Virus record (IMG/VR): IMGVR_UViG_2609459833_000015
Location: 1-17,614 of that record
Length of the DNA: 17,614 nucleotides
Source: a virus
Lineage: Duplodnaviria; Heunggongvirae; Uroviricota; Caudoviricetes
Direction: 5' to 3' (one strand)
Under the pieces are notes generated by a model, which worked only from the letters and a program-made list of their open reading frames with translations, was not told the DNA's origin and did not search any database. Position 1 is the stretch's first letter, and each line of letters opens with the position of its first letter. The position numbers and the translations under genes are program-made. Of the stretch, positions 14,612-15,640 are shown piece by piece.

Positions 14612-15556
14612 ATGATCACTATTACCAAAGGGCGACTGCTGACAATCAAGCAGTGGCGCGAAACATACGGACCGGGTAGCAACGTTGTACTGCCAGCAGA
14701 AGAAGCGGAAGAACTGGCACGAATTGCACTGGCATCATTGGAAGCAGATCCAGTTAAACGAGTTAACTCAGATCAGATGCACCGAGTCTGCTTAGAAGCT
14801 AATCGCTATTTAGATAAATATGACGCGATGGCGAAAGAGGTAAATAAGTTGCTTGGACGCATCGCCCCGCCAGCGCCAGTATTTAACGGCGAATACGGTG
14901 ACGCATATCAGGGCGCTCGTGAAGACCTGTCCATCTGGAAACGGCGAGCGCTTGAAGCTGATGAGCACGTTCGGCGACTGGAGCAAATCAATGACCACAT
15001 GGTGAAAGAGGCGCAGGGAGAATCACGCATGGGCGAGCCTGTAATACGTGAGCCAGCACCGGTAGTGCCTGAAGAAGCAACTCCGGAAAACGTAGAAATG
15101 CTCTCTGGCTATGTTTCAACGTACAAATTAACCGATAGCGAGCGCGATATTGCTGCCGAAATATGGAACGCCTGCCGCGCCGCCATGCTTCAGTCCGGAA
15201 ACTTTCGGGAAAACAAGAATTCGTCAACCAATAATTTTCGGGAAATCGCGGAAACGTCAACCAACTATCCGGCAATTCCTAGTGAGGTGTTGTCCGCAAT
15301 CCTGAAGGTTGCCAGGATTCGTGCCGATTTCGATGATTTTGACGGTGACAGGCGAGGTATCGGTGATTGTCTGGATGAGGCTGAGCAAGAGCTTATCGTT
15401 ACCATTAACAAATATGCCAGTCAGTTGGCAGCAGAACCTATAGCGCCTAATGACGTTCGAGAGCAGACAGCCATTCCACAAGTTCCGGTAACTCCGGATG
15501 GTTGGATAAGCTGTAGTGAGCGAATGCCGGACGACAGGCAGGAGGTGAATCAATGA
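14612..15556 (+). CDS. Hypothetical protein ending in a truncated DUF551-like start
   Basis: SD AGAGGA before ATG 14612; C-terminus PDGWISCSERMPDD resembles the beginning of a DUF551 domain but the ORF stops 7 codons later. Confidence 0.5.
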   Translation: MITITKGRLLTIKQWRETYGPGSNVVLPAEEAEELARIALASLEADPVKRVNSDQMHRVCLEANRYLDKYDAMAKEVNKLLGRIAPPAPVFNGEYGDAYQGAREDLSIWKRRALEADEHVRRLEQINDHMVKEAQGESRMGEPVIREPAPVVPEEATPENVEMLSGYVSTYKLTDSERDIAAEIWNACRAAMLQSGNFRENKNSSTNNFREIAETSTNYPAIPSEVLSAILKVARIRADFDDFDGDRRGIGDCLDEAEQELIVTINKYASQLAAEPIAPNDVREQTAIPQVPVTPDGWISCSERMPDDRQEVNQ

Positions 15557-15636
15557 GCTGGCCTGATGCAATCGTAACTCTGGGGGTGGTATTCGCAGCA
15601 GCGTTTGTTGTGTTCTCGATTTGTCGATGGGGATAA
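15553..15636 (+). CDS. Small hydrophobic peptide (27 aa, single predicted transmembrane helix)
   Basis: MSWPDAIVTLGVVFAAAFVVFSICRWG; strong SD GGAGGTG (15541-15547); ATGA overlap with the upstream stop; not in the ORF track. Confidence 0.4.
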   Translation: MSWPDAIVTLGVVFAAAFVVFSICRWG

Positions 15637-15640
15637 CCAC

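Follow-up and report, generated by a model that had tools for sequence, protein, structure and literature searches.

The 17,614-nt stretch of DNA analysed here in its entirety (IMG/VR record IMGVR_UViG_2609459833_000015, positions 1 to 17,614; hereafter the window) poses a question at the 3' end of its run of early phage genes, where a 314-aa ORF stops within what appears to be the opening of a DUF551 domain and is overlapped at its stop codon by a 27-codon ORF with the composition of a single hydrophobic helix. A sequence-only reading of this arrangement offered two explanations, namely a deletion scar or a small membrane peptide. From the comparisons described below both descriptions hold, but they are not alternatives, being mutually independent: we consider it likely that the window carries an in-frame DUF551 deletion allele beside an older, separate gene for a membrane microprotein of 27 codons.

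The window sequence is 100% identical to a stretch of the E. coli EC2 genome (NZ_CP058571) and constitutes the early-left arm of a lambdoid prophage integrated beside mlrA. Its + strand is occupied by densely packed “ea”-type genes, among which 4-nt ATGA overlaps are common; a match to Ead/Ea22 (Pfam PF13935, E=1.3e-32) lies at 12180-12995. Following the “ea” run, the gene order is 314-aa ORF, 27-aa ORF, DUF4222, 44-aa ORF, excisionase and integrase, and the distal end of the early-left operon adjoins the mlrA attachment site. The features that bear on the question are as follows.

14612..15556, + strand: 314-aa mosaic exo-xis (Ea22-type) early gene with a DUF551 stub at its end (ORF, PHROG, Av-05 gp123)
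15494..15547, + strand: DUF551 remnant (PDGWISCSERMPDDRQEV), a conserved N-terminal segment directly abutting conserved C-terminal codons (Pfam PF04448)
15539..15541, + strand: deletion junction, with CAG (Gln310) common to both sides (nucleotide alignment of stub and intact genes)
15541..15547, + strand: Shine-Dalgarno sequence GGAGGTG of the 27-codon ORF, within the last codons of the upstream gene (QEV) and 5 nt before the ATG
15553..15636, + strand: unannotated 27-codon ORF, a predicted single-pass membrane microprotein (MSWPDAIVTLGVVFAAAFVVFSICRWG), in ATGA overlap with the upstream stop
15641..15883, + strand: DUF4222 gene (Pfam PF13973, E=9e-14), 4 nt 3' of the 27-codon ORF
15887..17614, + strand: distal end of the early-left operon, comprising the 44-aa ORF, excisionase and integrase (ORF list, Pfam, PGAP)
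16040-16294, + strand: excisionase, in the distal early-left operon
16328-17614, + strand: integrase (PGAP CDS of equal length, then mlrA)

The start of the large gene is placed at 14777 by PGAP, giving a protein of 259 aa. Matches to PHROG 660/3323/60/14306 nevertheless begin at residue 1 of the 314-aa form, and Av-05 gp123 has its N-terminus (MS/ITI-TK..LLTIKQWRETYG) in common with it, such that residues 1-95 are covered by these matches; a good Shine-Dalgarno sequence (AAGAGGA) precedes 14612. Because the PHROG and gp123 matches run from residue 1, we prefer the 14612 start, and the RefSeq/PGAP start at 14777 is probably wrong. Related N-terminal modules (“...IALASLEAEP/ADP...”) were also observed in 13746-14195 and 14612-15556, both within one operon, and the module is consequently paralogous inside a single prophage. 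A Pfam search of 14612-15556 returned no Ead_Ea22 (PF13935) match at E<=0.1, and only mosaic segments are shared between the 314-aa protein and genes annotated “Ea22”. A structural study of Ea22 assigned DUF551 (PF04448) as the C-terminal domain of “Ea22 V2”, and described Ea22 genes as having mosaic C-terminal domains with a 16-aa segment common to variants V1 and V2 (PMC10834534). The 314-aa gene resembles the Ea22 and other exo-xis proteins of lambda and Stx phages in being a mosaic exo-xis gene; unlike “Ea22 V2” (PMC10834534), the copy in the window is devoid of the DUF551 core.

Examination of the C-terminus bore out the earlier observation that the 314-aa ORF (14612-15556) ends seven codons past the motif that opens DUF551, its final residues being ...PVTPDGWISCSERMPD-DRQEVNQ* (equivalently PDGWISCSERMPD followed by DRQEVNQ). 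The proposed truncation was likewise upheld: residues 297-312 match only positions 1-16 of the 68-position PF04448 profile (23.3 bits), and the W-x-S-x-x-E-x-P through HWMPLP span of a full domain is incomplete, the HWMPLPEPP end being missing from the stub. As 23.3 bits nominally exceeds the 22-bit Pfam cut-off for DUF551, some copies are labelled “DUF551 domain-containing” by PGAP. The yfdS-like gene at 11389-11751 (11389..11751), which had been cited as an intact copy, is indeed full-length (profile positions 3-68); its DUF551-like domain is, however, divergent, and at 21.0 bits falls just below the same cut-off.

Alignment with intact relatives accounts for the stub. Against the closest parent type (L198, reading SERMPNDKQ|YVW...PEPPQ|EVNQ), 159 nt (53 codons) are missing in frame, with CAG at both edges of the gap; at the nucleotide level the alignment reads ...AACGAYNNNCAG[159 nt]...CCGCCGCAG|GAGGTGAATCAATGA. 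The GAGGTGAATCAATGA segment is unaltered, and the final codons (QEVNQ*), the Shine-Dalgarno sequence GGAGGTG and the ATGA stop/start overlap are all spared. Phages YYZ-2008 and BP-4795 have intact DUF551 genes at the same position and give a clean gap when aligned with the window, and intact relatives in general carry 45-60 extra residues between SERMP.. and ..PPQEVNQ. The stub is in effect the conserved N-terminal end joined to QEVNQ. These alignments support the deletion part of the earlier reading, an in-frame loss of the DUF551 core relative to intact relatives. As a sequence of events, the last “ea”-cluster gene of the exo-xis (early-left) region would formerly have had a complete DUF551 domain at its end; loss of 159 nt in frame, between short CAG/GCAG repeats, would then have taken out the variable core, so that the conserved stretch at the N-terminal end (PDGWISCSERMP.D.Q) came to run straight into the final codons (EVNQ*). 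The resulting remnant would be unable to form the domain, and the allele appears to have been tolerated and to have spread by recombination to many N-terminal modules.

Among the fetched loci, intact domains share common ends (PDGWISCSERMP... and ...HWMPLPEPPQEVNQ/K) enclosing at least eight unrelated cores of 45-60 residues; such near-identical ends (PDGWISCSERMP and HWMPLPEPPQEVNQ) with differing cores were observed in L004, L005, L020, L198, L205, L180, L162 and others. DUF551 at this position is thus a hypervariable cassette, perhaps subject to diversifying selection or to frequent core swapping. The stub itself was identified in identical form attached to at least six different N-terminal modules in the fetched loci, always paired with the MSWPDAI allele of the small ORF and with DUF4222 (80/80 in the sample), and a search of 5,426 complete E. 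coli genomes located its junction in 147 of them. Since the stub is the same on all of these modules and constant in its partners, the comparison points to one deletion event, subsequently disseminated through recombination within the conserved PVTPDGW segment; no intact parent with the exact stub prefix turned up when one was searched for. The truncated DUF551 is an ordinary, tolerated deletion allele.

The remaining elements of the earlier description, the ATGA overlap, the GGAGGTG Shine-Dalgarno sequence and a hydrophobic ORF of 27 codons, were all found where they had been placed. The ATG at 15553 overlaps the upstream TGA at 15554-15556; ATGA overlaps are the norm in this operon, and the coupling of the 27-codon ORF is in this respect not special. 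Residues 6-24 of the peptide form a 19-residue hydrophobic core with a mean Kyte-Doolittle value of 2.63, sufficient to span a bilayer, and substitutions among peptide alleles exchange one hydrophobic residue for another.

Whether the small ORF was itself a product of the deletion can be decided from its other genomic contexts. In YYZ-2008, BP-4795, L020 and L198 the same ORF, with its Shine-Dalgarno sequence and stop/start overlap, sits behind an intact DUF551 gene, and it is also found behind an unrelated “...GLISVEDILR” gene (ArgO145, L027), a 933W p77-type gene and, in Av-05, a virulent phage of the Vequintavirinae, an Ea22-like gene. Upstream partners fall into at least four unrelated classes rather than one family, only about two-thirds of them having an Ea22-type module, and a purine-rich Shine-Dalgarno sequence (GGAGGTG, GGAGGAT, AAGGGG or AAGGTG) is kept in most of these classes. 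On the downstream side, DUF4222, mok/hok, a toxin-antitoxin pair and other genes substitute for one another, and alleles of the ORF reassort with both neighbours. Because the same ORF follows intact DUF551 and non-DUF551 genes, it was not made by the deletion, and on this distribution we judge it to be older than, and independent of, that event. The comparison with intact homologues that the sequence-only reading had called for therefore gave two results, the loss of a 159-nt core and the presence of the small ORF behind intact DUF551 genes; intact DUF551 homologues with no equivalent small ORF, named beforehand as the observation that would count against the peptide, were not what it showed. 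The idea that the small ORF arose from the scar is accordingly abandoned.

Two further loci were distinctive in their arrangement. In 933W (L087, 734-1284), a 156-aa gene (p77) lies between the DUF551 gene and the small ORF and ends in the same junction (CAGAAGGTGAATCAATGA), which suggests that the junction sequence is a module boundary for insertion or exchange. In PP818812.1 (L089), recorded as “Actinobacillus phage vB_Apl-pPE4”, positions 659-1651 comprise an E. coli-type ea gene, the small ORF and a Hok gene, closely resembling those of coliphages; the Actinobacillus host may be mis-assigned, or the sequence may be a contaminant.

Conservation was assessed in a sample anchored on DUF4222, and hence unbiased with respect to the ORF, consisting of 85 fetched loci, the window and its identical RefSeq record. 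The ORF was intact in 86 of these 87 sequences. The sole frameshifted copy, in IMGVR_UViG_2609459844_000008 (L077 / L091), has a 1-nt deletion; its upstream gene also appears disrupted, and this prophage is probably decaying. In all, the ORF was found intact at 27 codons in more than 200 phage or prophage loci, with the upstream stop/start overlap taking the form ATGA in 179/210 and TGATG in 17/210. All family members are exactly 27 codons long, even with a relaxed search that left length, stop, G11, A15 and S22 free, while a degenerate pattern built from the conserved residues had 0.00 expected occurrences in shuffles of the window. One 30-aa ORF (MNWPEAAVACTAIAAFAFIVYAWWRWGPEL; L231 10994-11086, - strand, of IMGVR_UViG_3300020202_000070) fits the relaxed pattern and has a hydrophobic interior; given the 74% GC composition of this sequence, it is probably a chance match and was not accepted as a family member.

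In all, 39 distinct peptides were identified, and the strict-pattern set comprised 53 distinct DNA alleles, with pairs of major alleles 62-85% identical in nucleotide sequence. Pairwise dN/dS ranged from 0.09 to 0.6 at dS of about 0.5-2, where synonymous sites are near saturation; these estimates are noisy on 27 codons, with a few pairs near 0.8-1.0 on unconstrained codons. Residues W3, P4, A6, R25 and W26 were invariant in an eight-allele set free of any pattern constraint (later pattern scans held these five fixed by design), and of the 39 alleles from a scan that left both G11 and A15 unconstrained, 38 retained the former and 37 the latter; S22 is replaced by Val or Leu in one clade. Of the other five reading frames, four are closed or have dN/dS (pN/pS) above 1. 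The wobble-matched antisense frame mirrors the sense dN/dS, which cannot separate the two, and was rejected as a gene solely on the absence of a conserved start codon and boundaries. Taken together, the allele comparisons show the predicted product of the 27-codon ORF to be that of a conserved coding gene of fixed length, frame, start and stop, under purifying selection, and it is in this form that the membrane-peptide part of the earlier reading is supported.

With respect to prevalence, the three main peptide alleles occur in 182, 1,327 and 485 of 5,426 complete E. coli genomes; as the three sets may overlap, the proportion of genomes with any of these alleles lies between 24% at the least and about 37% at the most. 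Phage records containing it include 933W, VT2-Sakai, VT1-Sakai, Min27, BP-4795 and YYZ-2008. In the RefSeq/PGAP and phage records inspected, the ORF carries no annotation, the only feature under the match being the upstream gene through its 4-nt overlap. At 84 nt the ORF is below the usual length limits of gene callers, which is the main reason for its absence. A few submitter annotations name it “bacteriophage protein” or “hypothetical protein”, and a 40-aa version of it, called with an upstream extension, appears widely under the name “putative prophage protein”, this extended form yielding only three clusters, all “hypothetical”, in a database of 5.8 billion proteins. Apparent fusions of the peptide to “DUF551” proteins of 121 aa and 185 aa were rejected, these being the upstream proteins clustered through partial calls. 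No family in Pfam, PHROGs, NCBIfam or PADLOC matches the peptide, its sequence was not found in the searchable literature or in the supplements of Hücker 2017 and Fesenko 2024, and the Ea22 paper (PMC10834534) does not mention the downstream ORF. On the comparative evidence, we regard the 27-codon ORF as a real, widespread and essentially unannotated gene for a predicted phage microprotein.

As a best guess, the product of this gene is a microprotein of the inner membrane, expressed early, and not a toxin of the classical type I kind. During infection or induction, ribosomes would reach the ORF on the polycistronic early-left (pL) mRNA through translational coupling or re-initiation; as the ORF lies in a repressor-controlled operon, it should be silent in the repressed lysogen. 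According to the positive-inside rule the peptide would insert in the inner membrane N-out/C-in, the acidic D/E5 lying near the N-terminus, followed by the hydrophobic core of 19 residues, with R25-W26 facing the cytoplasm. The peptide may then act by helix packing through G11-xxx-A15, on itself or on a host inner-membrane protein. This packing step is weak, G11 and A15 being the residues that suggest it: a helical-wheel analysis gave no sign of one conserved face, 5,117 of 10,000 permutations scoring no lower than the observed arrangement. The peptide would on this proposal be a host-modulating microprotein of the lytic or early programme, and not a stand-alone toxin or lysogen exclusion factor. 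That it is a functional early phage microprotein, lodged in the inner membrane of the host and bound there to one of the host's membrane proteins, is possible, and we offer this reading tentatively.

Small single-pass membrane proteins that bind larger membrane proteins include KdpF (29 aa), PmrR (29 aa), MgtR (30 aa), SidA (29 aa) and AcrZ (49 aa). Like these, the peptide has about 27-30 residues, one hydrophobic helix, charged or aromatic ends and, in G11xxxA15, a small-xxx-small motif, and has been overlooked by gene callers; unlike them it is phage-borne, is encoded in an early-left (exo-xis) operon, and shows no similarity to them in Pfam or NCBIfam. As a predicted single-span protein, it adds to this known class of small membrane proteins.

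The explanation that survives best beside this proposal holds that the peptide is a membrane-depolarising toxin of the kind represented by TisB, DinQ, ShoB and Hok, or a superinfection-exclusion factor that protects the lysogen. Its size and hydrophobicity are those of type I toxins, sharing with Hok/Gef, TisB, DinQ and ShoB a short hydrophobic helix, and the ORF often adjoins hok/sok (as in 933W-type phages) or toxin-antitoxin cassettes; these adjacent hok, toxin-antitoxin and DUF4222 genes are, however, interchangeable. Unlike the genes of those toxins, that of the peptide has no antisense RNA, leader or mok-type control; type I toxins typically have their translation tightly repressed, to which the strong Shine-Dalgarno sequence and the operon coupling seen here run directly counter. 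No Rfam match was obtained for 15300-16100, promoter-like sites on either strand were at chance level with none on the minus strand within the ORF, and the Hok/Gef signature was not detected in the peptide by Pfam (E<=0.1), NCBIfam or PADLOC models. The lack of an antisense RNA and of a family match, together with the strong Shine-Dalgarno sequence, makes for a poor fit to a classical type I toxin. For the exclusion variant, early phage membrane proteins with this function are exemplified by T4 Imm/Sp, P22 SieA and HK97 gp15, with which the peptide has in common that it is a phage-encoded (predicted) inner-membrane protein; those proteins are much larger, often with several spans, the prophage examples are expressed in the lysogen, and no homology to them was found. 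Given that the ORF has no promoter of its own, lies in an operon expected to be silent in the lysogen, and is also present in the virulent phage Av-05, it fits poorly with a lysogen-expressed exclusion factor. To our knowledge, no gene of the exo-xis region has been linked to envelope stress. During infection with Phi24B from which exo-xis had been deleted, degP (-3.0 log2), htpX (-2.4) and heat-shock genes were less induced than with the wild type (PMC10789677). If Phi24B carries the ORF, the lower degP/htpX expression might be what the loss of a membrane-inserting peptide produces, and it would by the same token fit a membrane-perturbing toxin. On balance, we consider the toxin or exclusion explanation unlikely. 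A phage lipoprotein of the Rz1/Cor/Llp type was also considered as a candidate and rejected, Cys24 being replaced by Phe in the YYZ-2008/BP-4795 allele and cleavage leaving just three residues.

A second alternative would deny the inner-membrane microprotein a role of its own, with the ORF merely relaying ribosomes from the ea gene to the next gene, or encoding a membrane-anchor subunit dedicated to the protein upstream. In favour of this, the overlap between its start and the preceding stop codon is constant, and just 4 nt separate the ORF from DUF4222. The last codons of the ORF (TGG GGA TAA; 15626-15643) were observed to place GGGGA 8 nt before the DUF4222 ATG, and its 3' end, through the terminal TGGGGA, may double as the Shine-Dalgarno sequence of that gene. 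The RW[GR] end of the peptide is nonetheless kept even at loci with more than 150 nt before the following gene, the peptide is under purifying selection with five residues invariant (eight alleles) and G11 and A15 nearly so, and the diversity of upstream partners, of at least four unrelated classes with about two-thirds sharing the Ea22-type module, is difficult to reconcile with a dedicated subunit. We therefore regard a pure relay or anchor function as improbable.

Still less probable is that the locus is a deletion scar and nothing more, with a chance or untranslated ORF in the intergenic gap. Short ORFs are abundant here, 65 of at least 20 aa overlapping 14000-17614 (3.6 kb), so that a length of 27 codons is unremarkable by chance and its significance is carried by the comparative data only; the absence of the ORF from RefSeq annotation, and of the peptide from the searchable literature and the Hücker 2017 and Fesenko 2024 supplements, would also be expected of a spurious ORF. 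Against this, the ORF accompanies intact DUF551 genes as well as upstream genes of unrelated kinds, retains a Shine-Dalgarno sequence in most contexts, and keeps its length, start and stop across DNA alleles of 62-85% identity with dN/dS below 1, and the annotation gap is explained by its 84-nt size, the 40-aa extended call being widely annotated. Finally, although a junction (...AGGTGAATCAATGA) recurs at module boundaries such as the end of 933W p77 and alleles reassort with both neighbours, a nucleic-acid element in place of a peptide gene (an RNA, a terminator, or a recombination “boundary sequence” between mosaic modules) is scarcely credible, since the body of the ORF is poorly conserved as DNA while a hydrophobic peptide with fixed residues is kept, its folding energy equals that of shuffled sequences (z=0.04), no Rfam family was found in 15300-16100 at E<=1, and promoter and terminator sites show no excess over chance.

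In lambdoid and Shiga-toxin phages, the choice between lysis and lysogeny and the induction of the prophage are both subject to the influence of the exo-xis region, whose gene content is still taken to be a handful of annotated ORFs, a set to which the conserved 27-codon gene adds. Studies in which the “exo-xis region” was deleted or over-expressed have probably altered this gene unknowingly. The DUF551 stub, for its part, may be seen as a natural experiment, in which the core has been lost and the 3' codons that would drive translation of the small gene have been kept. Should the microprotein reading be true, most 933W-type Stx2 phages would possess a previously unseen gene. As a candidate for a host-targeting microprotein, the 27-codon ORF is well defined and inexpensive.
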